From Eledone cirrhosa (lineage: Eukaryota): DNA of 64,000 nucleotides. Location of the stretch: the NCBI GenBank assembly GCA_964016885.1, contig OZ024750.1, positions 20,646,001 through 20,710,000 of the forward strand. Direction: 5' to 3'. A program made the position numbers and the translations under genes. The notes under the pieces were generated by a model that was not told the DNA's origin, did not search any database, and worked only from the letters and a program-made list of their open reading frames with translations. Positions 1,522 through 62,507 of this stretch are shown here, piece by piece; within the stretch, counting starts at the first letter, position 1, and each line of letters begins with the position of its first letter.

Positions 1522-2215
1522 GGGTATCAAAAAAATAAATATGGTATTTATAGGTCCCTACAAGTGGTAGGAGAGGGTGGGGAGTGGATAGGTGCAGGTC
1601 ATTGGTTGATAGAAAAGGGAATTCATTAAAAGCTAATTCTACAAGGCTATAGTTAATTTTTATTTTTATTTATATTTATTTATGTTTTTAGAGTAACAAA
1701 GGCAGACAGAATTCTATAAACAGGTTCCGGATGCCATACCATTCCTTGTCGATAAGTTTCTCTTAAGCTAACAGATGTCTATAAAGTCAGTGGGGGGTCA
1801 GTCATGGTCGATAGAATTAAAGAAAAGGGAGATTCTTTAAAAGCTAAAGTCATTAAGGTTCTACTAAGTGACAAAGGTCTAGAGAATTCTGCAGACAGAT
1901 TCAAAATACTGAGTGCATATCTTACTATTATCTTCGAACTTCTCTTAAACTAATCAACTATATGCCAAAAATCAACAGACACATTCACAAAAAAACCAAA
2001 AAAAAAACAAAAAAACAAAAAACAAAAAAACACATACTCACTCACACACTTACGCGCAACCATAAACACACACACAAACAGATATACACACATAAAAACA
2101 CACACACATATATAAAAAATATATAAATATATATAAATATAAATATATATTCATGTACACACATACATACACACATACATACATACATACATATACAATA
2201 CATATACACATATAC

Positions 2216-2264
<49 letters not shown>

Positions 2265-2297
2265 TACATATACATACATATATACATATACACAGAT

Positions 2298-2344
<47 letters not shown>

Positions 2345-2457
2345 GATACACACACACATACACATACATACACACACACATACATATATACACAAATAAA
2401 TACACTCACACGCATACATACAAACACGAGTATACATATGTATAAATATTTATACAC

Positions 2458-2550
<93 letters not shown>

Positions 2551-2858
2551 TATACATACATATACATATATATATCCATACATATACAAACATACACATA
2601 CATACACAGACCTATACATAAATATACAAATATATATACAGACATATAACGCGTATATACACACACATATACACACACATATATATATACACATACATAT
2701 ATATATATATACATATACATATATATATATATACATATATATATACATATATATACATATATACACATACACATACACATATATATATATACACACACGC
2801 GCATACACACATACACACACCCACACACAAAATATATATACACACTCTCTCTCTCACG

Positions 2859-2900
<42 letters not shown>

Positions 2901-3129
2901 TACATACACATACATACATATATATATATATATACACATATATATACATATATATATATACACACATATATACATCTATACACATATACACAAATATATA
3001 TATATACACACACATACACACACATATACACACATATATACATACATACACACATACACAAACACAGACACATACAAATACACATATATATACACACATA
3101 TATACACACATACACACACACATATATAC

Positions 3130-3174
<45 letters not shown>

Positions 3175-3247
3175 TATACATATATACACACATACATACA
3201 CACGTACACATACATACAGATACACATATATACATATACACACACAT

Positions 3248-3311
<64 letters not shown>

Positions 3312-3373
3312 ATATACATACATATACACACACACACATACACACATATATACATATATACATACAAATATAT

Positions 3374-3418
<45 letters not shown>

Positions 3419-3455
3419 TATATATATACATACACACACACATTCACACATACAT

Positions 3456-3508
<53 letters not shown>

Positions 3509-3669
3509 TACACATATACACATATATATACACATATACACGCACATACATACACACATACACATACATATACATAAACATACATACATACATACATACA
3601 TACATACATACAAACACATATATACACATATACACATATATACATATACATATATATATATATATATAT

Positions 3670-3700
<31 letters not shown>

Positions 3701-3780
3701 CATATACACAAACATATACATACATATACATACATAAATATACACACATAAAACACATATACACACAAACATATATATAT

Positions 3781-3855
<75 letters not shown>

Positions 3856-4159
3856 TACACGAATACACATATACAAACAAATATATACACATACAAGTAA
3901 ATAGGTACTCAATAAATATACGCATATACGCAGGCACATAAAGACACCTCTACAGGCAGAAAATGTAGATACGAAAGAGGTACTCACATAACCATAGTGG
4001 CCGTGTTTCAGGTTGAGGAGGGGTGGGGGTAGGGTGGGGAGGAGGTATAGTGGCCAATAGGGGGAGGTCGTTTTTAGCCATCGGGCTTTAACACTGGCTT
4101 AAAGTGTTTGAATGTTGCAAAGTTCTTGTGCATGCAGTTCGGGCAGTGTTCAGAGAGTT

Positions 4160-4513
4160 AGTTGCAAAAAAACTTACATCGGCATGACCTCCAACAACTT
4201 TAAGACCCGTTGGTATGCCCATACCCACTCCTTCAGAAGACCGGATAAATCAAATCAAACAACACTCGCCTCCTACGTTTGGGACCTCAAAAGGAACTCC
4301 ACCCCCTTCACGCTTAATTGGAAAATACTCCAGAAAGCGCGCTCTTACAACGGAGGACACAAGGGCTGCGACCTTTGTATTTCAGAGAGCTACGAAATTT
4401 TATTCGCCAAGGGCCCGCTACTGAACAAACTCTCTGAACACTGCCCGAAATGCATGCACAAGAACTTTGCAACATTCAAACACTTTAAGCCAGTGTTAAA
4501 GCCCGATGGCTAA
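4160..4513 (+). pseudogene. C-terminal GIY-YIG endonuclease fragment of a Penelope-like element
   Basis: TYIGMTSNNFKTRWYAHTHSF...TTLASYVWDLK...WKIL...CDLCISE...LLNK...CMH aligns by eye with the GIY-YIG domain at 31758-32165; 5'-truncated at the inversion point. Confidence 0.85.
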
Positions 4514-4731
4514 AAACGACCTCCCCCTATTGGCCCCTATACCTCCTCCCCACCCTACCCCCACCCCTCCTCAACCTGAAACACGGCCACTACGGTTATG
4601 TGAGTACCTCTTTCGTATCTACATTTTCTGCCTGTAGAGGTGTCTTTATGTGCCTGCGTATATGCGTATATTTATTGAGTACCTATTTACTTGTATGTGT
4701 ATATATTTGTTTGTATATGTGTATTCGTGTA

Positions 4732-4800
<69 letters not shown>

Positions 4801-5068
4801 ATATATATATGTTTGTGTGTATATGTGTTTTATGTGTGTATATTTATGTATGTATATGTATGTATATGTTTGTGTATATGTATGTATATATATATATATG
4901 TATGTATATATATATATATATATATATGTATATGTATATATGTATATATGTGTATATATGTGTTTGTATGTATGTATGTATGTATGTATGTATGTTTACG
5001 TATATGTATGTGTATGTGTGTATGTATGTGCGTGTATATGTGTATATATATGTGTATATGTGTATGTG

Positions 5069-5132
<64 letters not shown>

Positions 5133-5183
5133 ATGTATGTGTGTATGTGTGTGTGTATGTATATATATATATATGTGTATATT

Positions 5184-5214
<31 letters not shown>

Positions 5215-5285
5215 ATATTTGTATGTATATATGTATATATGTGTGTATGTGTGTGTGTGTGTATATGTATGTATATGTATGTGTG

Positions 5286-5325
<40 letters not shown>

Positions 5326-5406
5326 ATGTGTGTGTATATATATATATATGTGTATTTGTATGTATGTGTACGTGTGTATGTATGTGTGTGTATATATGTA
5401 TATATA

Positions 5407-5454
<48 letters not shown>

Positions 5455-5633
5455 ATGTATATATATGTATATATGTGTGTGTGTGTATGTGTGTATATAT
5501 GTGTGTATATATATGTGTATTTGTATGTGTCTGTGTTTGTGTATGTGTGTATGTATGTATATATGTGTGTATATGTGTGTGTATGTGTGTGTGTATATAT
5601 ATATGTGTGTATATGTGTATAGATGTATATATG

Positions 5634-5664
<31 letters not shown>

Positions 5665-5701
5665 ATGTGTATATATATATATATGTATGGATGTGTATGT
5701 A

Positions 5702-5736
<35 letters not shown>

Positions 5737-6096
5737 GTGCGTGAGAGAGAGAGTGTGTATATATATATTGTGTGTGGGTGTGTGTATGTGTGTATGCGCG
5801 TGTGTGTATATATATATATGTGTATGTGTATGTGTATATATGTATATATATGTATTATATTTATATATATGTATATTTATATATATATATATATATATAT
5901 GTATATGTATATATATATATATGTATGTGTATATATATATGTGTGTGTATATGTGTGTGTATATACGCGTTATATGTCTGTATATATATTTGTATATTTA
6001 TGTATAGGTCTGTGTATGTATGTGTATGTTTGTATATGTATGGATATATATATGTATATGTATGTATATATATATATGTGTGTATATATATATATA

Positions 6097-6166
<70 letters not shown>

Positions 6167-6272
6167 AATATTTATACATATGTATACTCGTGTTTGTATG
6201 TATGCGTGTGAGTGTATTTATTTGTGTATATATGTATGTGTGTGTGTATGTATGTGTATGTGTGTGTGTATC

Positions 6273-6318
<46 letters not shown>

Positions 6319-6351
6319 ATCTGTGTATATGTATATATGTATGTATATGTA

Positions 6352-6394
<43 letters not shown>

Positions 6395-7012
6395 GTGTAT
6401 ATGTATTGTATATGTATGTATGTATGTGTGTATGTATGTGTGTGTACATGAATATATATTTATATTTATATTATATTTATATATTTTTTATATATGTGTG
6501 TGTGTTTTTATGTGTGTATATGTGTTTGTGTGTGTGTTTATGGTTGCGCGTAAGTGTGTGAGTGAGTATGTGTTTTTTTGTTTTTTTGTTTTTTTGTTTT
6601 TTTGTTTTTTTGTTTTTTTGGTTTTTTTTGTGAATGTGTCTGTTGATTTTTGGCATATAGTTGATTAGTTTAAGAGAAGTTCGAAGATAATAGTAAGATA
6701 TGCACTCAGTATTTTGAATCTGTCTGCAGAATTCTCTAGACCTTTGTCACTTAGTAGAACCTTAATGACTTTAGCTTTTAAAGAATCTCCCTTTTCTTTA
6801 ATTCTATCGACCATGACTGACCCCCCACTGACTTTATAGACATCTGTTAGCTTAAGAGAAACTTATTGACAAGGATTGGTATGCCATCCGGAACCTGTTT
6901 ATAGAATTCTGTCTGTCTTTGTTACGCTAAAAACATAAATAAATATAAATAAAAATAAAAATTAACTTTAGCCTTGTAGAATTAGCTTTTAATGAATTCC
7001 CTTTTCTATCAA

Positions 7013-7190: not shown

Positions 7191-7575
7191 GGAAAGTTAT
7201 ATTTAAATTGTTGGGTTACAACTAGTAAATATTTATAACTGATATAAAAGCACTCGACAAATATTTGGAGTATACTTACAATATTAAATAAATGGAAACT
7301 ATATTTATAAAACCATATTTATTTCATTATATATATTTCAGGGATATCATATTAACAATATGCTATGCCTTCCTCAGACAAAATACAATATAAACAGTTT
7401 TCTCAAATGCAAGTAGATGTTGTTACGGTATGTCGAATCTATTTATCTATAAAACTGTTTATATTGTATTTTGTCTGAGGAAGGCATAGCATATTGTTAA
7501 TATGATATCCCTGAAATATATATAATGAAATAAATATGGTTTTATAAATATAGTTTCCATTTATTTAATATTGTA
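7191..7575. mobile_element. Fold-back element family A, copy 2, with hammerheads at ~7320-7385 (-) and ~7467-7533 (+)
   Basis: Closely similar to 616-1011; core CTGAGGA 7475-7481, GAAA 7513-7516. Confidence 0.8.
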
Positions 7576-14142: not shown

Positions 14143-14150
14143 TATACACA
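12521..14150. repeat. Compound (TA)n/TATATG microsatellite
   Basis: Direct reading; a similar array lies at 21476-22746. Confidence 0.95.
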
Positions 14151-14262
14151 TGTCCTTGAGCACAACCCTTTATTTCACGTTGCTCGTTCTACCTGGAGTT
14201 GCGACCGACACATAGTATTAGAAATTGGAAAGAACATCGGAAACATTGTTTCCTCGGTCCGA
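14150..14262 (+). mobile_element. SINE fragment (GTCCTTGAGCAAGACACTTT-type core)
   Basis: Matches the core seen at 23735-23985 and 43800-43912. Confidence 0.45.
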
Positions 14263-14298
14263 TTTGACGAAATTCGATCGACTACTTGCTTATATATA

Positions 14299-14375: not shown

Positions 14376-14428
<53 letters not shown>

Positions 14429-14495
14429 AAGGTTTAGCAAATAATGAAAAAGTTTCAAAATAAATTCTAAAAAATTGACTTTACCTACTATAGTT

Positions 14496-14578
14496 ACCTT
14501 TACCGATCGGTTTCGAATCCCAAAAATAAACGGAGACCATACGGCCTTCGTTGCAAAGAAAGATTCTCGTCAGAAGGT
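14496..14578 (-). ncRNA. Hammerhead ribozyme of the 485-bp unit (second minus copy 14981-15063)
   Basis: Reverse complement of 15497-15579. Confidence 0.85.
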
Positions 14579-15496
14579 TCTTTTCATTCGAAGAACATAA
14601 AATTCTTGAATTTAAATTACGAACTAGCGCTATCCAAAACTGTTCCTGGGATGAGAGTGAATGATGTGGAATCAATTTTTTCAAGGGCCGAAGTAAAGAT
14701 AGAGGCAGAGGGAGGTAGGTCAAACCGGCCGCAACTATCACTAGCAGCAGTCGGAACGACCCAATTTGTCTCTCAACAATAGAGGAGAGTAGTAATAATA
14801 GGATATGTGTTCCTTCACGCACAAGGCGCTAAGGGACGCATGTATTGTCCAGCCAAATGCCAATGTGGTTCAATGGCAGGTTAATAAATTAACGAGCCAG
14901 AACATATATAAACAAGGTTTAGCAAATAATGAAAAAGTTTCAAAATAAATTCTAAAAAATTGACTTTACCTACTATAGTTACCTTTACCGATCGGTTTCG
15001 AATCCCAAAAATAAACGGAGACCATACGGCCTTCGTTGCAAAGAAAGATTCTCGTCAGAAGGTTCTTTTCATTCGAAGAACATAAAATTCTTGAATTTAA
15101 ATTACGAACTAGCGCTATCCAAAACTGTTCCTGGGAAACTGTTCATTATTTGCTAAACCTTGTTTATATATGTTCTGGCTCGTTAATTTATTAACCTGCC
15201 ATTGAACCACATTGGCATTTGGCTGGACAATACATGCGTCCCTTAGCGCCTTGTGCGTGAAGGAACACATATCCTATTATTACTACTCTCCTCTATTGTT
15301 GAGAGACAAATTGGGTCGTTCCGACTGCTGCTAGTGATAGTTGCGGCCGGTTTGACCTACCTCCCTCTGCCTCTATCTTTACTTCGGCCCTTGAAAAAAT
15401 TGATTCCACATCATTCACTCTCATCCCAGGAACAGTTTTGGATAGCGCTAGTTCGTAATTTAAATTCAAGAATTTTATGTTCTTCGAATGAAAAGA

Positions 15497-15579
15497 ACCT
15501 TCTGACGAGAATCTTTCTTTGCAACGAAGGCCGTATGGTCTCCGTTTATTTTTGGGATTCGAAACCGATCGGTAAAGGT
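15497..15579 (+). ncRNA. Type I hammerhead ribozyme of the 485-bp unit (also 15982-16064 and 16467-16549)
   Basis: Stem I ACCTT/AAGGT, CTGACGA 15502-15508, stem II GAATC...GATTC enclosing a ~42-nt insert, GAAA 15561-15564, palindromic stem III ACCGATCGGT, GUA triplet. Confidence 0.9.
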
Positions 15580-16732
15580 AACTATAGTAGGTAAAGTCAA
15601 TTTTTTAGAATTTATTTTGAAACTTTTTCATTATTTGCTAAACCTTGTTTATATATGTTCTGGCTCGTTAATTTATTAACCTGCCATTGAACCACATTGG
15701 CATTTGGCTGGACAATACATGCGTCCCTTAGCGCCTTGTGCGTGAAGGAACACATATCCTATTATTACTACTCTCCTCTATTGTTGAGAGACAAATTGGG
15801 TCGTTCCGACTGCTGCTAGTGATAGTTGCGGCCGGTTTGACCTACCTCCCTCTGCCTCTATCTTTACTTCGGCCCTTGAAAAAATTGATTCCACATCATT
15901 CACTCTCATCCCAGGAACAGTTTTGGATAGCGCTAGTTCGTAATTTAAATTCAAGAATTTTATGTTCTTCGAATGAAAAGAACCTTCTGACGAGAATCTT
16001 TCTTTGCAACGAAGGCCGTATGGTCTCCGTTTATTTTTGGGATTCGAAACCGATCGGTAAAGGTAACTATAGTAGGTAAAGTCAATTTTTTAGAATTTAT
16101 TTTGAAACTTTTTCATTATTTGCTAAACCTTGTTTATATATGTTCTGGCTCGTTAATTTATTAACCTGCCATTGAACCACATTGGCATTTGGCTGGACAA
16201 TACATGCGTCCCTTAGCGCCTTGTGCGTGAAGGAACACATATCCTATTATTACTACTCTCCTCTATTGTTGAGAGACAAATTGGGTCGTTCCGACTGCTG
16301 CTAGTGATAGTTGCGGCCGGTTTGACCTACCTCCCTCTGCCTCTATCTTTACTTCGGCCCTTGAAAAAATTGATTCCACATCATTCACTCTCATCCCAGG
16401 AACAGTTTTGGATAGCGCTAGTTCGTAATTTAAATTCAAGAATTTTATGTTCTTCGAATGAAAAGAACCTTCTGACGAGAATCTTTCTTTGCAACGAAGG
16501 CCGTATGGTCTCCGTTTATTTTTGGGATTCGAAACCGATCGGTAAAGGTAACTATAGTAGGTAAAGTCAATTTTTTAGAATTTATTTTGAAACTTTTTCA
16601 TTATTTGCTAAACCTTGTTTATATATGTTCTGGCTCGTTAATTTATTAACCTGCCATTGAACCACATTGGCATTTGGCTGGACAATACATGCGTCCCTTA
16701 GCGCCTTGTGCGTGAAGGAACACATATCCTAT

Positions 16733-16766
<34 letters not shown>

Positions 16767-16910: not shown

Positions 16911-17582
16911 TAGAAGGTGTCCCAAAAGATGCATACACACTATATCCTGTGATTCTTTCCTGAGCCATTCTACCCACGTACCCATAACATCGGAATTGTG
17001 AACTCTTAATTTAGAGAGGTAAATATTCTACCTGGTGTGACTTTCTGAACTCCGATCTCCGCTTTCTATCGAATAACAATGCTCTAAATACCTTTCTGAG
17101 GAAACCCATTTTGATATTCACGTTCGTATTGTTTTGGTTTTTTACCCAAGATTCCTGACCATTTGTAAGGGTTGGCACGAAAACCTAATTGAAGACAGTG
17201 AGTTTGGCTTCTACTACTACTTCCCACATATTGATTTACGAATGCTGAGCCTGATGCATTACTGAATTAGGTGATACTTTCGATGTTGTCTTATCACATG
17301 ATGAGTCCCAGTTTATCAATTTATAGTTAAAAACGTGAAAGAACGTGAAAGAACGAAGACACTCCAAGTTGTACTTTACAAATATAGCGATGTGAGCCAC
17401 AATTTGTGCATAAAACTGAAAGAAATTCCCAACACCAATTAAATGGTAGATTCAAGTCGGCATAGCCGCACATTTCTCCAGCTCTTTACTTCTGAAAATC
17501 ATGATAATTGCGGAGCCAGTCAAGGCAATTTATCGTAAATAAACCTTCGTAAAGACTCAAATTGCATTTTCAACATCTTTTT

Positions 17583-26039: not shown

Positions 26040-26653
<614 letters not shown>

Positions 26654-30372: not shown

Positions 30373-30473
<101 letters not shown>

Positions 30474-30517
30474 AAGTTAAATAAAAGTCAAATGATTAAA
30501 ATTTAGCTTCGTTTATT

Positions 30518-30572
30518 ACTGCTATATATATTTCAGTGACAGCCATCTTTGGCTGTGACCTCTTCAGGCAGT
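30518..30572 (-). ncRNA. Type I hammerhead ribozyme in the PLE 3' UTR/pLTR
   Basis: Reverse complement of 36772-36826. Confidence 0.85.
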
Positions 30573-31757
30573 TTGAATTAGTATGGTATAGACAAGTACA
30601 TATGGTGTTTAGGTGTATGATATTGTCAATACTCTGATATGCCCAGTTCCTTGCTGGGTTGTTAATTCACTGGGGAACTGGGGTCATATGAATTCAAACA
30701 AACGAATTTTCGTGTCACAGGTCCCCTTCTCCTCTCATTGGTCAGTTATTAGTGTTGTCATTGTTGGAGTTAGCTTAAAAATTGATAAAATGGTAGAAGG
30801 GACAAGGTGTTGAATGAACAAAATATCAAAAAATGTGTCAAACTTCCCATTGTTCAGTTCTGAGAGCATTCCTCAGTCAGAAGTCTATAGAATTCTTTCT
30901 GGGGTGAGGCTCCCTGTAGTGTTTATGCCTGCTATTGTTCAGTACATTTGACCTCCACCATTATTTTGGTACTGTTGTTGTTGTAGTGGTCAGCTTATAC
31001 CTTGCTGCTGCTAACAATTTAGAAGTATTCAGTTTGTGTTTTCTCTTCATCCCACCCGCCACCATCGTAGTGGTGGTGGCGGGGGGGGGGGGGTTCTTTC
31101 ATGTATATGAAGAAATATAAGGCAATAAATGAAGAAAACAGAAGATAAATAAATAATATAATAAAATAAAATAATTAATATAATTTGTGTAATTTGAAAA
31201 TAAATAAATAAATAGAGAATAAAGAATAAAGAGTAAATGAGAGATTGGTGAAAAAGTAATGATAATGTATATGGAGAAGTGAGAAATAATGTAGGATAAA
31301 GTGTGTGTGTGTGTGCTATAACCAATCTCAAGGTCAGAATATGTTGGATAGATTGGTATGATACAAGATGTTAAGATGAGATATTCAATGTATTTGTGTT
31401 ATAATCTATCTCAACTTAAAATAAATATAAGGTTATACAGTGAAGAGGGCAGAAAACAAATAACAAATTAATAAAGAGAAATCAAGATTTAAGATTGGAA
31501 CTTTAAAGTCAGAAATCTGGTAAATTAAAAGTGTTTGTGTTATAGATGTTGGCCAGATTATTATGGCTGTGTCCGATTCTATCTCTAGGCTATCACGGTG
31601 TCTGCTCCGCCTGGGTTGTTCCCTATGGCTTGAGGGGAGTTCACAACCTAGGGTGTTGTAATTGTCCATATAGCTTGAGGGAGGTCTGGCCGAGAGGTGT
31701 TTTCATGTTCTGTAGAAGTCCCTATAGCTTGAGGGGAGTTCACATCTTCTTGTGTTG

Positions 31758-34426
31758 CTACTGTCCATATATTTTGAGAAAGGTGTCTGCATGTCCCGAA
31801 GAAGTCGGTTCTGAGGTTTATCAGGCCGCTTCCACCTCTTAGTATCTCGAGGGTCTCGTTCAGGCATAGTTTGCATATGCAAGATCCCCCTTTATCGGGT
31901 GGTACTTTCCTGATTATGTACCAGGCCAGAGAGTATGGGGTCCTGTCCAGCTTAAGCTTCCAGATCAGGTCGGAGAGAGCTGTGCTTTTCCTTTTGGCCT
32001 CCTTCTTGAATGAATGGCGATGGTTGTACCAACGGTCCTTAAAGCTCGCTGATGTGGCTCCTATGTAGAGGTGTTCGGAGTTGGGTGTTTTAACCCTACA
32101 ACCGTACACTATGTTCTTCTTGAGACATTCATTACCAAGGGGGCATGATTCGGGGTTTCTACAGTTGCAGAGGGTGGGCGGCCTCTGCGTGCTTAGATTA
32201 GGGTTCTCATTATGTGTTACATGTTGGTCTTCCCCCATGCTCGGTGGGGGGTCCTTGGGTCTGTTTGTGTTTCTTGGGTGGGCTCTGGGTCCCCCCTTCC
32301 CTCCTTTCACATGGTTCTGCTGAGTGTTTGTATTGCCATCTTCTGGTTGTGTGTGGTTTTTAAGCCTACTTCTGTTGATGCTAGCTATGTGTTGGGCCAA
32401 ATTTCTCGTGGTGGAATACGAAAGCTTCACAGTGTGTCTGTTGAAGATCCTGTGGTATCTGTGGTCCCTCGGGAAGCATTTGTCAAGTGCTCCAAAGAAC
32501 AATCGGGCCAAGCTTTTCTTTAGGGCCGCTGAGTAGGGTGGGTTGTACCACGTGATTTGTCGGTGTCTCCTCCTATATGTGTGGGTTGGGGGCTTCGTGA
32601 TTTGTTGGAGATTTGTTGGTTTGCTGGTGGTTTCCGCACTGTTGCTTCCCTTTTGGGCTCTATACTTTTTGTTATCTTCACGGCCCGGATTTGTGGGGTG
32701 GTTGTTGTCTGTCCCGGGAGATCCATCGTGGGGTGGTCGCCCGTTTCCCCCCCCCCCCCACACGTGTCCTGCGGTTGGGGTTGTCCGTCCTGGGGTAGTT
32801 AGCATCACGCCTGAGACTGCTACTCATATTGTGCTCCATCTCGTGGTCAAGCGCACTAGTCCCCACCGCCCGTGTGGTGGTGTCTGGTACATGGTGCCTA
32901 TTTGATTTTGCTCTGCCTGTATTGTTAGGGTTCGCCCTCCCCCCTCTGGTAACGCGGTTGTGGGTGTCTGTTGGGCTATCCACCTCCCGGCTTTTCGGAC
33001 TATATGTTATATTTTGTCCATGTGCCGCCTTCTTTAGAGCTGCGTTGTAATATTCCGCGTGGTTGTTGAATATTTCCTTACTTGCGGACAGGCTGGAGAT
33101 CCTGTCCGAGACACTCTTCACCACTGCCTTGGTTATGGATCTAGGGTGGTTTGATTTGGCGTTAACATATACTAGTTTCTCGTTGGGCTTGTGGTAGGGG
33201 TAGTATTGCTCGGTGTTCAGGTTTAGGGTGGTGTCTAGGAAGTTAACTACCTTCCTATTTGGGTCTATTTCTATGCTGAGCCCCTGGTTCTTAAAGAAAT
33301 GGCGAATACGCCTCCTCATACCCTTCAACATATTGGTGCTGTGGTCATGTACTGTGAATAGAGCATCATCACGATATAATCCGCCGCCCAGGCAGGGGAT
33401 TTCATCTTTTATCTGCTTCAGCAGGTAGAGCCCAACCAGGTCCGTTACCTGCGCTGAGTCGCTGGAGCCCATCGTGATGTCAAAGTTATTTGGCCAATCA
33501 CTCCTGGTCCACAGGTCTCCATCGAAGCGGATTAAGGTCTTTCTTGCGGCGTGGATGATGCTCACCTCCTCTCGGGTTAGGTCCGTATTGGACATCGCTA
33601 AAAATAGGGCCTTATTAAGTACTATGGGTGAGATTGAGGAGTAGTAGCTTGCGATGTCCAGTTGTATAAAGCTGGTCCTACTTTTCTCATGCAGTATTTT
33701 GAACCATTCTATTACTTCTCTCGTGCATGACCATTGCTGTAATTTGGTTTTATTCCGAAGCTTGGGCAAAATCCTATCCAGTATTCTTTTACTGACGATC
33801 CCTAGGTCAGATCTGGAGGGGGCTATTAGTATGACAGGGAGGTCGGACTCAAAGTTTGACTTGTGGTCTTTAAGGGTAATCCGCGGCTCCCTTGGTTGGT
33901 ATGGGGCCGTCCTGTCCTCTATGCCGATTCTGGATATAATCCTGTAAGCTGTGGCATTGATCTCATCCAGGGTAAATCCAGGTGTTTTTTTGTAGCACTT
34001 CCTCAGTTCCCTGAGGATTAGCTTATTGTACAGTTCAGTGTTCATGTTGTAGAGGTTGTTTGTTTTGTCAGCATGGACAAGTATTCCAGTTGTCCCTTTA
34101 AGTACTGTAATCCGGTTTCTCAGGTGTCTGAGGTATTCCTGACTTCTGGTTGGGTTTCCGGAGAATTTGAGGTTGGATATGATGTTATTCATCTCGTTTT
34201 CAAACTCCTCCATTAGTCTGTTATGGGGGGGATTCCTCCTTGATCGAAAAAGGTACTCCATGTTTTCTGTGTTTGTAGTTTTCTGCGCTCCTCTTTCGAA
34301 GTGGAACGCCTTCCATCTCATCCTACGGATGAGGGAGTCCGTACTCTTGATGAGATCACTGGTGTATTCTCGTTTATCAGGTAGGGGGATGTCCTTCAGT
34401 GACGCTAAGGTTGCCAGTTTATCCAT
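31758..34426 (-). pseudogene. PLE reverse transcriptase / GIY-YIG endonuclease polyprotein (frameshifted at the G13 run 32747-32759)
   Basis: ADKTNNLY; motif A LDIASYYSSI; motif B ITMGSSDSAQVTDLVGLYLL; motif C LYRDDAL; VNFLD; SNHP thumb; linker WYNPPYS...FNRHTVKLSYS; CNCx5Cx5C; IVY...YIGAT..FKDRW.NH; CKLCLNE...CRH. Track ORFs 32678-34426 and 31648-32808 join if one G is removed. Confidence 0.92.
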
Positions 34427-34607
34427 AGTGACTTAGGTCCGCTACTGTTTGAAGCGCTCAACCCGTGTGGGAGCTAGATAGATTTTGAGTTTATGTTGGT
34501 TGTATACCAACACCTTAGTATGCAGGCTGGAGCACTCGACGAAGTGCGCAGGTTGGTTTGGTTACTCCGGAGTAGTGTAAAATAAAATAAGTAGTGTAAA
34601 ATAAAAT

Positions 34608-35583
34608 CTCCCGGGGCAGACAACAACCACCCCACAAATCCGGGCCGTGAAGATAACAAAAAGTATAGAGCCCAAAAGGGAAGCAACAGTGCGGAAACCA
34701 CCAGCAAACCAACAAATCTCCAACAAATCACGAAGCCCCCAACCCACACATATAGGAGGAGACACCGACAAATCACGTGGTACAACCCACCCTACTCAGC
34801 GGCCCTAAAGAAAGCTTGGCCGGATTGTTCTTTGGAGCACTTGACAAATGCTTCCCGAGGGACCACAGATACTACAGGATCTTCAACAGACACACTGTGA
34901 AGCTTTCGTATTCCACTACGAGAAATTTGGCCCAACACATAGCTAGCATCAACAGAAGTAGGCTTAAAAACCACACACAACCAGAAGATGGCAATACAAA
35001 CACTCAGTAGAACCATGTGAAATGAGGGAAGGGGGGACCCAGAGCCCACCCAAGAAACACAAACAGACCCAAGGACCCCCCACCGAGCATGGGGGAAGAC
35101 CAACATGTAACACATAATGAGAACCCTAATCTAAGCACGCAGAGGCCGCCCACCCTCTGCAACTGTAGAAACCCCGAATCATGCCCCCTTGGTAATGAAT
35201 GTCTCAAGAAGAACATAGTGTACGGTTGTAGGGTTAAAACACCCAACTCCGAACACCTCTACATAGGAGCCACATCAACGAGCTTTAAGGACCGCTGGTA
35301 CAACCATCGCCATTCATTCAAGAAGGAGGCCAAAAGGAAAAGCACAGCTCTCTCCGACCTGATCTGGAAGCTTAAGCTGGACAGGACCCCATACTCTCTG
35401 GCCTGGTACATAATCAGGAAAGTACCACCCGATAAAGGGGGATCTTGCATATGCAAACTATGCCTGAACGAGACCCTCGAGATACTAAGAGGTGGAAGCG
35501 GCCTGATAAACCTCAGAACCGACTTCTTCGGGACATGCAGACACCTTAGAGCCGGGACCTTTCTCAAAATATATGGACAGTAG
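34608..35583 (+). pseudogene. Inverted duplicate of the PLE linker + GIY-YIG region
   Basis: Near-identical to 31758-32721 but with 1-nt deletions and a stop at 35008-35010; retains the intact C-terminus CRHLRAGTFLKIYGQ*. Confidence 0.9.
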
Positions 35584-35597
35584 CAACACAAGAAGAT

Positions 35598-35725
35598 GTG
35601 AACTCCCCTCAAGCTATAGGGACTTCTACAGAACATGAAAACACCTCTCGGCCAGACCTCCCTCAAGCTATATGGACAATTACAACACCCTAGGTTGTGA
35701 ACTCCCCTCAAGCCATAGGGAACAA
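35598..35725 (+). repeat. Three imperfect repeats in the PLE 3' UTR
   Basis: CTCCC(C)TCAAGC(T/C)ATA(G/T)GGA at ~35603, ~35658 and ~35702. Confidence 0.7.
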
Positions 35726-36771
35726 CCCAGGCGGAGCAGACACCATGATAGCCTAGAGATAGAATCGGACACAGCCATAATAATCTGGCCAACATCTATA
35801 ACACAAACACTTTTAATTTACCAGATTTCTGACTTTAAAGTTCCAATCTTAAATCTTGATTTCTCTTTATTAATTTGTTATTTGTTTTCTGTCCTCTTCA
35901 CTGTATAACCTTATATTTATTTTAAGTTGAGATAGATTATAACACAAACACATTGAATATCTCATCTTAACATCTTGTATCATACCAATCTATCCAACAT
36001 ATTCTGACCTTGAGATTGGTTATAGCACACACACACACACACTTTATCCTACATTATTTCTCACTTCTCCATATACATTATCATTACTTTTTCACCAATC
36101 TCTCATTTACTCTTTATTCTTTATTCTCTATTTATTTATTTATTTTCAAATTACACAAATTATATTAATTATTTTATTTTATTATATTATTTATTTATCT
36201 TCTGTTTTCTTCATTTATTGCCTTATATTTCTTCATATACATGAAAGAACCCCCCCCCCCCCCGCCACCACCACTACGATGGTGGCGGGTGGGATGAAGA
36301 GAAAACACAAACTGAATACTTCTAAATTGTTAGCAGCAGCAAGGTATAAGCTGACCACTACAACAACAACAGTACCAAAATAATGGTGGAGGTCAAATGT
36401 ACTGAACAATAGCAGGCATAAACACTACAGGGAGCCTCACCCCAGAAAGAATTCTATAGACTTCTGACTGAGGAATGCTCTCAGAACTGAACAATGGGAA
36501 GTTTGACACATTTTTTGATATTTTGTTCATTCAACACCTTGTCCCTTCTACCATTTTATCAATTTTTAAGCTAACTCCAACAATGACAACACTAATAACT
36601 GACCAATGAGAGGAGAAGGGGACCTGTGACACGAAAATTCGTTTGTTTGAATTCATATGACCCCAGTTCCCCAATGAATTAACAACCCAGCAAGGAACTG
36701 GGCATATCAGAGTATTGACAATATCATACACCTAAACAACATATGTACTTGTCTATACCATACTAATTCAA

Positions 36772-36826
36772 ACTGCCTGAAGAGGTCACAGCCAAAGATG
36801 GCTGTCACTGAAATATATATAGCAGT
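36772..36826 (+). ncRNA. Type I hammerhead ribozyme in the PLE pLTR
   Basis: Stem I ACTGC/GCAGT, CTGAAGA 36777-36783, stem II GGTCACAGCCA/TGGCTGTCACT, GAAA 36810-36813, palindromic ATATATAT stem III, AUA triplet. Confidence 0.88.
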
Positions 36827-37079
36827 AATAAACGAAGCTAAATTTTAATCATTTGACTTTTATTTAACTTTATTTTACACTACTCCGGAGTAACCAAACC
36901 AACCTGCGCACATCGTCGAGTGCTCCAGCCTGCATACTAAGGTGTTGGTATACAACCAACATAAACTCCAAATCTATATATATATATATATATATATATA
37001 CTATAGTCACTTATATATTATGAAATACGGCTGGCTTCACGCTCACAATAATTTCTATACTTTAATTTATATTTATATA

Positions 37080-49125: not shown

Positions 49126-49158
<33 letters not shown>

Positions 49159-49160
<2 letters not shown>

Positions 49161-49780
49161 ACCTCGAGGAAGTCGATCACTTCACCTATCTGGGCAGCAT
49201 CCTGACAGGCAGTGGCGATGCGGAGCTCGACATCAACTGTCGGATCAACAAAGGCGCCGCAGTTTTCCAGCGGCTGTGCCCAGTCTGGTTGTCTTCATGC
49301 ATATGCACCAAAACCAAGCTCCGCCTGTACAAGACAATCGTACTGCCGACAGAGCTTTAAGCGAGACCTGGAAGAATGCGGCAAAAAAAGAGAGACGGCT
49401 GAACGGTTTCCACCAGCGGTGCCTGCGAAAGATATTTCGTGTGTCCTGGCGCCACCGACGGCAAAACGGGGAGATCCTGCTGAGGGCCGAATCGTGGAAG
49501 CTACAGAGCGTGGTCAATGAGCGTTGGTGCCGTCTGGCTAGCCATATTCTGCGTCTGTCAATGGAACGACATTCGAAATCACCGCTGAACTGGACTCCTC
49601 CTGGCGGTACTGGAGGCGGGGTTGCCCAAGGATCAACTGTTGACGAACCTGATGCGGAAGGACCTGATGGCAGCCAACATCACCTGGCACGGTCTCGAAA
49701 AAGTTGCCGCTGATCGTGACCGTTGGTGAGTACCTATTGCTTGTTGCGCCGAACGGCGCGGAAGAATCTAAGACTAAGAT
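49159..49780 (+). mobile_element. 5'-truncated RTE-clade LINE fragment (RT C-terminus and 3' end)
   Basis: LEEVDHFTYLGS...INCRINK...TKLRLYKTIVLPT / SETWK...FHQRCLRKIFRVSW...HILR...LNW..DRDRW; ends in (CTAAGA)2; (TA)n on both sides. Confidence 0.85.
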
Positions 49781-60180: not shown

Positions 60181-60380
60181 GATGAATTTGTATCCTAGAC
60201 ACTTCTAAGTAAATTAAGAAACTGAATAGTGTGCTATATATAATAGCGCACATGACATCCTAGCGCGTCTCACAAACTTACACCACTAAAAATAGCAGCT
60301 AGGTTTACAAGACAAGCAATTTGAACATATATATATATCTGTGTTCGTTTTTCTTTTATATTCTATTATTATATATACAC

Positions 60381-60882
<502 letters not shown>

Positions 60883-61747: not shown

Positions 61748-62507
61748 AATGTACTTAACAATAGCAGATGCACTCCACAATAGCAAAAACAAACACTACA
61801 GGGAACGTCACCCCAGAAAGAATTCATATAGACTTTTGACTGAGGAATGCTCTCAAAACTGACCAATGGGTGGAGTGACCTTACAAATTCTTATAACATT
61901 GAGATTGGGTATAACACACACACATTTTATTTGATTATTTTATTTTGTTCCTTTACCACCTTATTCCTTCTACCACTTTATCATTTTTTTTAGCTGACTC
62001 TAACGCCAAAACCACTACCAACATAAGAGTAGAGGTCAGATGTACTTAAGAGTAACAAGAACAACCACTACAGATTGCCTTGCCTCACAACGAATTTCTA
62101 TAGACTTTTGACTGAGGAATGTTCTCACAACTGACCAATGAGAGGAGAAGATGTCCTTTGATGCTGAAATTCGTTTGTTTAAATTCATATGATTCCAGTT
62201 CCTCAGTGAAACAACAACCCAACCAGGAACTGGGCATATCAGAGTATTGACAAAGTTAAACACCTCAACAACATGTGTACTCGTCTCTACCACACTAATT
62301 CGAACTGCCTGAAGAGGTCACAGCCAAAGATGGGTGTCACCGAAATATATATAGCAGTAATAAACGAAGCCAAATTTTTAACATTTGACTTATTTATTTT
62401 ATTTTATTTTACATTTCTCCGGAGTAACTAAAGCAACATGCGCACTTCGTCGAGTGCTCCATCTGCACACTCCGGTGTTGATATACAACCAACATATACT
62501 CAAAATT

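Follow-up and report, generated by a model that had tools for sequence, protein, structure and literature searches.

We analysed a 64,000-nt stretch of Eledone cirrhosa DNA (contig OZ024750.1, positions 20,646,001 to 20,710,000; hereafter the window) and found a non-coding 485-nt unit with a hammerhead motif, present in 1.48 + 3.29 copies arranged head-to-head and embedded in a (TA)n microsatellite (14376-16766, Table 1). Unit positions are counted from the predicted ribozyme cut, with position 1 at window 15575. The two arms match the unit with 0 mismatches over 2,312 nt, TRF reports a period of 485 with 3.3 copies for the plus arm, and the inverted repeat spans 718 nt at 100% complementarity. 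These values agree with a preliminary description made from the letters of this DNA, which had counted about 4.8 identical 485-bp copies (1.5 on the minus strand, 3.3 on the plus strand). The arms diverge outward, 5' to 5', and reach (TA)n at both outer ends. The left end, at unit 75-82 (TATATAT), blends into the (TA)n, as the preliminary description had it when it placed this end about 75 nt downstream of the cut; it had missed that the right end (unit 191) is a second RNA-3' end, located at another recurrent site. The short duplication it had noted at the junction is also present: AAACTGTTC occurs at 15122-15130 and again at 15136-15144, spanning the junction. The 5-nt fill between the arms is likely a templated, end-joining product. 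Templated fills of this type are typical of microhomology end-joining.

Table 1. Features of the hammerhead array and its flanks (window coordinates)
Feature	Position	Strand
Left (TA)n target microsatellite, overlapping the element end	14376..14425	.
Inverted arm, 1.48 units, 718 nt, unit 335 to 82, RNA-3' end at site A (75-82)	14419..15136	-
Type I hammerhead, predicted cut after 14501	14496..14578	-
Type I hammerhead, predicted cut after 14986	14981..15063	-
5-nt fill at the head-to-head junction	15137..15141	+
Direct arm, 3.29 units, 1594 nt, unit 53 to 191, RNA-3' end at site B (188-191)	15142..16735	+
Type I hammerhead, predicted cut after 15574	15497..15579	+
Single cut-to-cut monomer, 485 nt	15575..16059	+
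Site A within a unit (75-82), the family's commonest 3' end	15649..15656	+
Hairpin immediately 3' of site A (GUUC-U-[stem]-AUU-GAAC), possible signal for protein loading	15657..15692	+
Site B within a unit (183-194), second 3' end	15757..15768	+
Hairpin immediately 3' of site B (CUCUC-C-[loop]-GUU-GAGAG), possible second signal for loading	15771..15790	+
Type I hammerhead, predicted cut after 16059	15982..16064	+
Type I hammerhead, predicted cut after 16544	16467..16549	+
Right (TA)n target microsatellite	16733..16766	.

The monomer has a GC content of 39%, and its longest stop-free frame is 115 codons. An ORF with RT and GIY-YIG endonuclease, the mark of an autonomous PLE, is absent from the unit, and comparison with the window's PLE protein gave no match at E<0.5. 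No LTR-element features are apparent in the array, whose arms pass directly into (TA)n. Two private variants (34G and 134C) are each present in 5/5 units of the window array, and four of the 485 sites separate it from the closest relative sampled. Contigs from four sequencing runs contain diverged family members, at high depth in organism A, and none of these contigs spans the array locus. The array flanks (14150-14283 and 16919-17210) are themselves high-copy repeats with very high contig depth. Elsewhere in the window, a GIY-YIG fragment (4112-4513) lies between long inverted copies (2042-4098 and 4489-6668) of a complex AT/AC microsatellite-like sequence, which yield mirror-image translations. 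Two further frames (49126-49713 and 60286-60756) presumably resemble the C-terminal part of non-LTR retrotransposon ORFs; Pfam gave no match for the first.

Each unit carries one hammerhead, as had been described, and the five in the array are of type I (cores at +15502, +15987, +16472, -15058 and -14573), with all predicted cuts falling after GUA. In the hammerhead at 15497..15579, stem I is ACCUU/AAGGU, the core is CUGACGA/GAAA, stem II is GAAUC/GAUUC with a long insert, and stem III is CC-GAUC-GG. This core-plus-stems pattern appeared in 0 of 20,000 shuffles of the unit. The Rfam hammerhead families gave no match to the array at the gathering score or at E<=10, probably owing to the stem II insert, which is unusually long compared with metazoan non-LTR retrozymes. 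We also compared two sister families, using a looser scan after a strict regular expression caught only 4 motifs. In the 486-nt family, stem I reads ACCCU/AGGGU, stem II AAGUC/GACUU and loop III GCGC; in the 522-nt family, stem I reads CUUCC/GGAAG and stem III CU-AAUU-AG. Compensatory changes across these families affect stems I-III, which suggests that the ribozyme is under selection. Counting against the model developed below, the cleavage-competent hammerhead lies 8.6 kcal/mol above the minimum in the circular fold of the monomer. The whole-monomer fold is mildly stable (z -1.89), and a search of viral contigs with the hammerhead pattern returned 0 matches. Also counting against the model, 8/9 predicted frog retrozymes were uncleaved in vitro in a recent study (bioRxiv 10.64898/2026.07.22.740005).

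The array is almost certainly a non-LTR retrozyme, as proposed in the preliminary description, and the testable features of that class are present here. Like the metazoan non-LTR retrozymes (PMC7229834; bioRxiv 10.64898/2026.07.22.740005; both compared here and below on the available parts of their text), the family consists of tandem repeats that encode nothing, are low in GC and have a single type I hammerhead in each unit, dispersed as monomers to multimers with PLEs alongside. The class, unit size and proposed life cycle are already known, and the array is a further member. The unit had been taken to exceed animal retrozyme monomers in size, but the published range is 51-972 bp (Li, Clavereau, Pollet 2026, bioRxiv 10.64898/2026.07.22.740005). 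The same authors argue for a PLE origin of retrozymes, and PLEs as candidate drivers and circle-templated copying were proposed for animal retrozymes by Cervera and de la Pena (2020, PMC7229834). The available text of these two papers includes no end mapping or template test, whereas we report ends, their pairing and variant inheritance.

The exact 23-nt word at the cut site occurs 1,226 times in the 3.0-Gb genome (control 0), and the family has at least 1,226 units genome-wide, in separate insertions on many contigs. Our survey of ends covers 88 insertions at 85 loci, none picked by its ends: 40 loci were chosen by unit similarity and 45 came from the first 100 cut-site-word matches. Loci picked by ends or variants (L116-L130 and L226) were left out of this tally, and neither L128 (a duplicate of L127) nor L118 (sister family) entered the 5'-end and inversion-geometry statistics. 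Array arms are as long as 10.1 units, and 9/41 inversions have more than one unit in each arm. A flank word is common to the two sides in 35/100 loci, a raw count that consists mostly of trivial TA runs; target duplications look real at L044, L054, L059, L063 and L093, and there is none at the window array. In non-LTR retrozymes, such duplications exceed 4 bp where they occur. At L127/L128 and at L199/L200, the same insertion has been duplicated along with its junctions, likely by segmental duplication. The 486-nt sister family (L118, L131-L160) is older, about 77% identical and mostly 1.1-1.9 units long, with the same site A and almost invariant positions 60-125. The 522-nt family is a distant relative with 868 first-look candidates and ends at +61 and +179; the window holds a stump of it at 26093-26542 and at about 50081.

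To define where insertions end, we located all outer ends on the unit and found two fixed positions, site A (75-84 from the cut) and site B (183-194). An outer end lies at A or B in 86/88 insertions, so that copies elsewhere do not end at random, in keeping with the preliminary description. Among the 54 single-arm insertions, 42 end at site A, 10 at site B and 2 elsewhere, where the class B counts include subfamily ends whose alignment stops at 169-174 and whose sequence continues to the equivalent position. The remaining 34 insertions are head-to-head: 26 combine an A end with a B end, A/A and B/B account for one insertion each, and 6 have one end elsewhere. The excess of A+B over same-site pairs (26:2) is significant against 50:50 (p=1.5e-6). 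Exact junctions of A with (TA)n number 325 genome-wide (control 0). By comparison, the 5' ends of 145 arms are spread evenly over the unit. The 486-nt family behaves similarly, with 27/30 loci ending at the same site A and three inversions that are A/B twice and A/A once. For the 522-nt family, 17/18 inversions are A/B, from a query that favoured copies with the B region.

The preliminary description had proposed insertion primed from a nicked (TA)n target, with annealing to the UAUAUA of the unit choosing the site. The first part is consistent with our junctions, and the second is not. Site B has a TA homology of only 3-4 nt and yet is used in 40 insertions (41 ends), whereas none of the 122 outer ends uses the TATAT at 387-391, which most young copies contain. 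Thus, TA homology alone does not choose the start site. The near-absence of A/A and B/B pairs would be expected if the two target ends prime one RNA at two different sites.

A similar anatomy is known from PLEs. In Poseidon PAc, a PLE of the anole, both target strands are nicked and extended by the enzyme, a predicted dimer, and two internal start sites lie downstream of the hammerhead cut, the stretch between them forming the PLE tail (Frangieh et al. 2024, PMC11167929, cited throughout from the available parts of the paper). In inverted PLE insertions, one of the two ends bears the tail (Craig et al. 2021, PMC8557442; Arkhipova et al. 2013, PMC3846280; likewise cited in part). The 485-nt family likewise starts internally, past the hammerhead cut (by about 85-92 nt in PAc and 75-82 nt here), and shares the two starts that give a one-end tail, the head-to-head 5'-truncated arms and the AT-rich targets. 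It differs in having no ORF, in a tail of about 105-110 nt rather than 30-40, and in arms that are multimers of a small unit. The PAc site is described as non-homologous to its target, whereas both start sites here have short TA homology. Two PAc observations speak against our model, namely that no start-site difference was seen between the strands and that in vitro ribozyme cleavage is dispensable, uncleaved RNA being the main substrate. Internal starts of the PLE RT on linear, uncleaved RNA in vitro also mean that an end downstream of the cut is not by itself a signature of rolling-circle copying, as it had been interpreted (PMC11167929). Sites A and B and the inversion would then represent PLE insertion anatomy rather than TA-homology priming alone, and we consider two-site priming of the PLE type very probable.

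The inverted arm could instead come from self-priming by fold-back, as suggested for Penelope (PMC3846280), or from L1-style twin priming shortly before the point where the first cDNA stops. An outer end does lie within 30 nt of the inner end of the other arm in 16/41 inversions (about 9.7 expected), and the 5' ends of B arms fall near A in 9/32 cases (p=0.015, uncorrected). However, this excess near A, as if a B enzyme stalled at A, is not repeated in the 522-nt family (2/17, 2.0 expected). In 5/41 inversions the two inner ends are separated by no more than 30 nt, against a chance value of 5.2, and the second outer end stays at B irrespective of where the first arm halts. Fold-back predicts palindromic centres, which the junctions do not have, and was rejected on this point. 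We therefore disfavour both forms of this explanation as very improbable.

To characterize the template, we followed variants between copies. Each insertion represents one haplotype, with private changes common to both arms. Some variants are fixed across units (345T in 11/11 units of L058; 24T and 446T in 5/5 units of L045). Variation within arrays consists nearly entirely of singletons, in 74 columns against 3 columns in 2 loci. The array L051 (4.6 + 4.2 units) carries 460C in one unit, and 61C and 98C in the adjacent unit. In its context, 460C occurs at 5 places genome-wide, which are that L051 unit and all 4 units of L063. The variant 61C occurs at 8 places: the L051 unit, 4/4 units of L059, 2/2 units of L060 and one unrelated older copy, where it stands without 98C, indicating a single independent recurrence of 61C. 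Apart from the marker variants, the backgrounds of the four loci are identical. This suggests that L051 was the source and L059, L060 and L063 its daughters, with the direction given by parsimony in a case of one source array and three daughters.

Since L063 lacks 61C and 98C, and L059 and L060 lack 460C, the border of the inherited block lies between 461 and 60. This interval is 86 nt long (18% of the unit); the ribozyme cut (485|1) falls inside it, whereas A and B fall outside. A read-through RNA would transmit one marked unit, whereas the daughters are wholly marked, which indicates that a single unit was amplified. With good confidence, variant inheritance points to multimers amplified from one monomer. 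This part of the earlier proposal, that a 485-nt monomer is copied more than once, is upheld, and a circle is the likeliest template. The identity of copies within the window array mostly reflects the single template. It bounds later divergence at <0.13% and leaves the event undated, so that it does not demonstrate the very recent activity previously read from it.

A linear monomer would explain the monomer bottleneck and its border equally well, if PLE-type two-site priming were followed by an enzyme that jumps repeatedly from the ribozyme-made 5' end to the 3' end in a telomerase- or DRT2-like manner. There is a bacterial precedent in an RT that makes tandem arrays from a non-coding RNA (PMC12039810, from its available part), and 4/145 5' ends lie within 3 nt of the cut where 1.8 are expected. 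This is no real pile-up, and the 272 crossings of the cut junction contain 0 indels, with substitutions in 10. The absence of indels at the cut and of a 5'-end pile-up favours a ligated circle over template jumping. Moreover, coral, mussel and axolotl contain abundant retrozyme circles (PMC7229834). We regard jumping on a linear monomer as unlikely.

An uncleaved read-through transcript of an existing array, with the ribozyme incidental to copying, appears slightly less likely still. Such a template would fit the anole PLE, whose ribozyme mutants insert normally in vitro (PMC11167929), and a heterogeneous multimer could be the origin of partly shared variants that a single circle leaves unexplained, at L040 (148T in 3/4 units, 155C in 2/4), L032 (163A in 2/3) and L098. 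Against this, L051 would mark only one unit per daughter, whereas L059, L060 and L063 are marked in all. Among 77 minor variants, only one (32 T>A, at a homopolymer edge) is shared as unfixed between near-identical loci. Read-through copying may account for a minority of insertions. We also considered RNA editing, whose signature was not supported: 8 of the 77 minor variants are A>G, and T>C is the commonest class with 18.

Finally, arrays might be inserted as 1-2 units by the PLE route and grow later by unequal crossing-over, like a satellite, a model discussed in bioRxiv 10.64898/2026.07.22.740005. The nested L040 variants fit stepwise duplication, and the loci selected by the cut-site word are mostly short (36/47 at <=2 units). 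Yet the longest arrays (10.1+1.9, 6.6+0.7 and 4.6+4.2 units) show zero differences from other loci, which suggests that they are among the youngest. Both arms can be long in the same insertion with private variants in common, and variation is star-like. Later growth of this kind is therefore improbable.

The window also contains a PLE (30467-36980) arranged head-to-head in (TA)n, with its RT and EN frames split on the minus strand (32678-34432 and 31648-32823). It is of the Hydra type with GIY-YIG, assigned by its RWK, DKT and CxCx5C motifs as in PMC8557442. Minimal hammerheads lie at 30567(-) and 36777(+), a related end lies at 62309, and one arm has a tail of about 100 nt. Pfam searches of five window ORFs gave sub-threshold GIY-YIG matches in 2/5 and nothing for RT. 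Small head-to-head pairs of PLE ends with minimal hammerheads, one arm tailed by 90-100 nt, were seen at 7377(-)/7475(+) and 56010(-)/56127(+). In the genome, we found 86,604 first-look candidates for a PLE protein related to the window PLE, and several PLE families with a hammerhead and two end sites 90-110 nt apart. At L222 (1822-4245), an 808-codon open PLE frame is preceded by a hammerhead end with both start sites and both hairpins, and this open-frame PLE is a candidate source of the enzyme.

These PLEs are Hydra-like in their RWK, DKT and CxCx5C motifs, with tails of 90-110 nt and hairpins like those of the 485-nt unit. Hydra-clade PLEs likewise combine (TA)n targeting with hammerheads (PMC8557442), and differ from the unit, which encodes nothing. 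The Chlamys MRC1-type elements are also non-autonomous PLE derivatives with multicopy head-to-tail insertions; in the available description they have no canonical hammerheads, and their 3' end resembles that of autonomous partners (PMC8557442), whereas we found no partner here. In the small part of PLE families sampled, none had clear terminal homology to the 485-nt unit, and homology with the sampled ends is restricted to a short hairpin motif. Two leads to an autonomous partner were rejected when they proved to be the 486-nt and 522-nt retrozyme families, and PLE fragments near retrozyme copies were rejected as separate insertions.

The hairpin has the form YUC-Y-[stem-loop]-RUN-GAR and usually lies within about 12 nt 3' of each site. 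We defined it after inspection and treat it as a lead, with about 0.3 matches expected per unit in shuffles. It is found 3' of both sites in the window PLE, in L222 and in the 522-nt retrozyme. Under the strict pattern, the 485-nt unit of the window shows the A hairpin alone, and the 486-nt unit the B hairpin alone. The B hairpin of the 485-nt unit does fold, but in the window haplotype it departs from the strict pattern.

Taken together, we favour, as somewhat better than an even case, a non-LTR retrozyme that is written into (TA)n by a Hydra-type PLE enzyme copying a ribozyme-cut circular 485-nt RNA from two start sites. A genomic array would be transcribed, and the hammerheads would release cut-to-cut monomers that are ligated to circles. 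The PLE RT-endonuclease, probably as a dimer, would bind the hairpins 3' of A and B and nick both (TA)n strands. The mapped ends are consistent with one DNA end starting at A and the other at B, where 3-8 nt of TA pairing may fine-tune the register. Each enzyme would then circle the template and halt at random; the amplification of a monomer is supported by variant inheritance, and a circle is its presumed form. The cDNA ends would join each other to give a head-to-head insertion, or a single arm would join the target, both products being seen as junctions. A more tentative extension, which we hold as possible though somewhat short of even, is that a two-part loading code is present in the RNAs of retrozymes and of Hydra-type PLEs. 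With a hairpin 3' of each start, the halves of a PLE dimer would be placed on one RNA, both (TA)n strands could prime at once, and two enzymes would chase each other round the ribozyme-made circle, producing head-to-head multimers.

A literature search of incomplete coverage turned up no publication in which retrozyme ends had been mapped to two PLE start sites, A/B pairing quantified or a monomer pedigree followed. The 485-nt family makes testable two questions raised by the papers cited above, namely how animal retrozymes are copied and why PLE insertions have inverted arms with a one-end tail. To this it contributes two mapped start sites, a hairpin that is a candidate for binding and a natural pedigree that marks the template border, and the same genome holds an open-frame PLE of the right type (L222, 808-codon frame). 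A small RNA would here program multimeric, site-preferring integration by a borrowed enzyme. If the reading of a loading code is true, the pedigree from L051 to L059, L060 and L063 would count as direct evidence from a genome that inheritance in an animal retrozyme proceeds by ribozyme-cut monomers.
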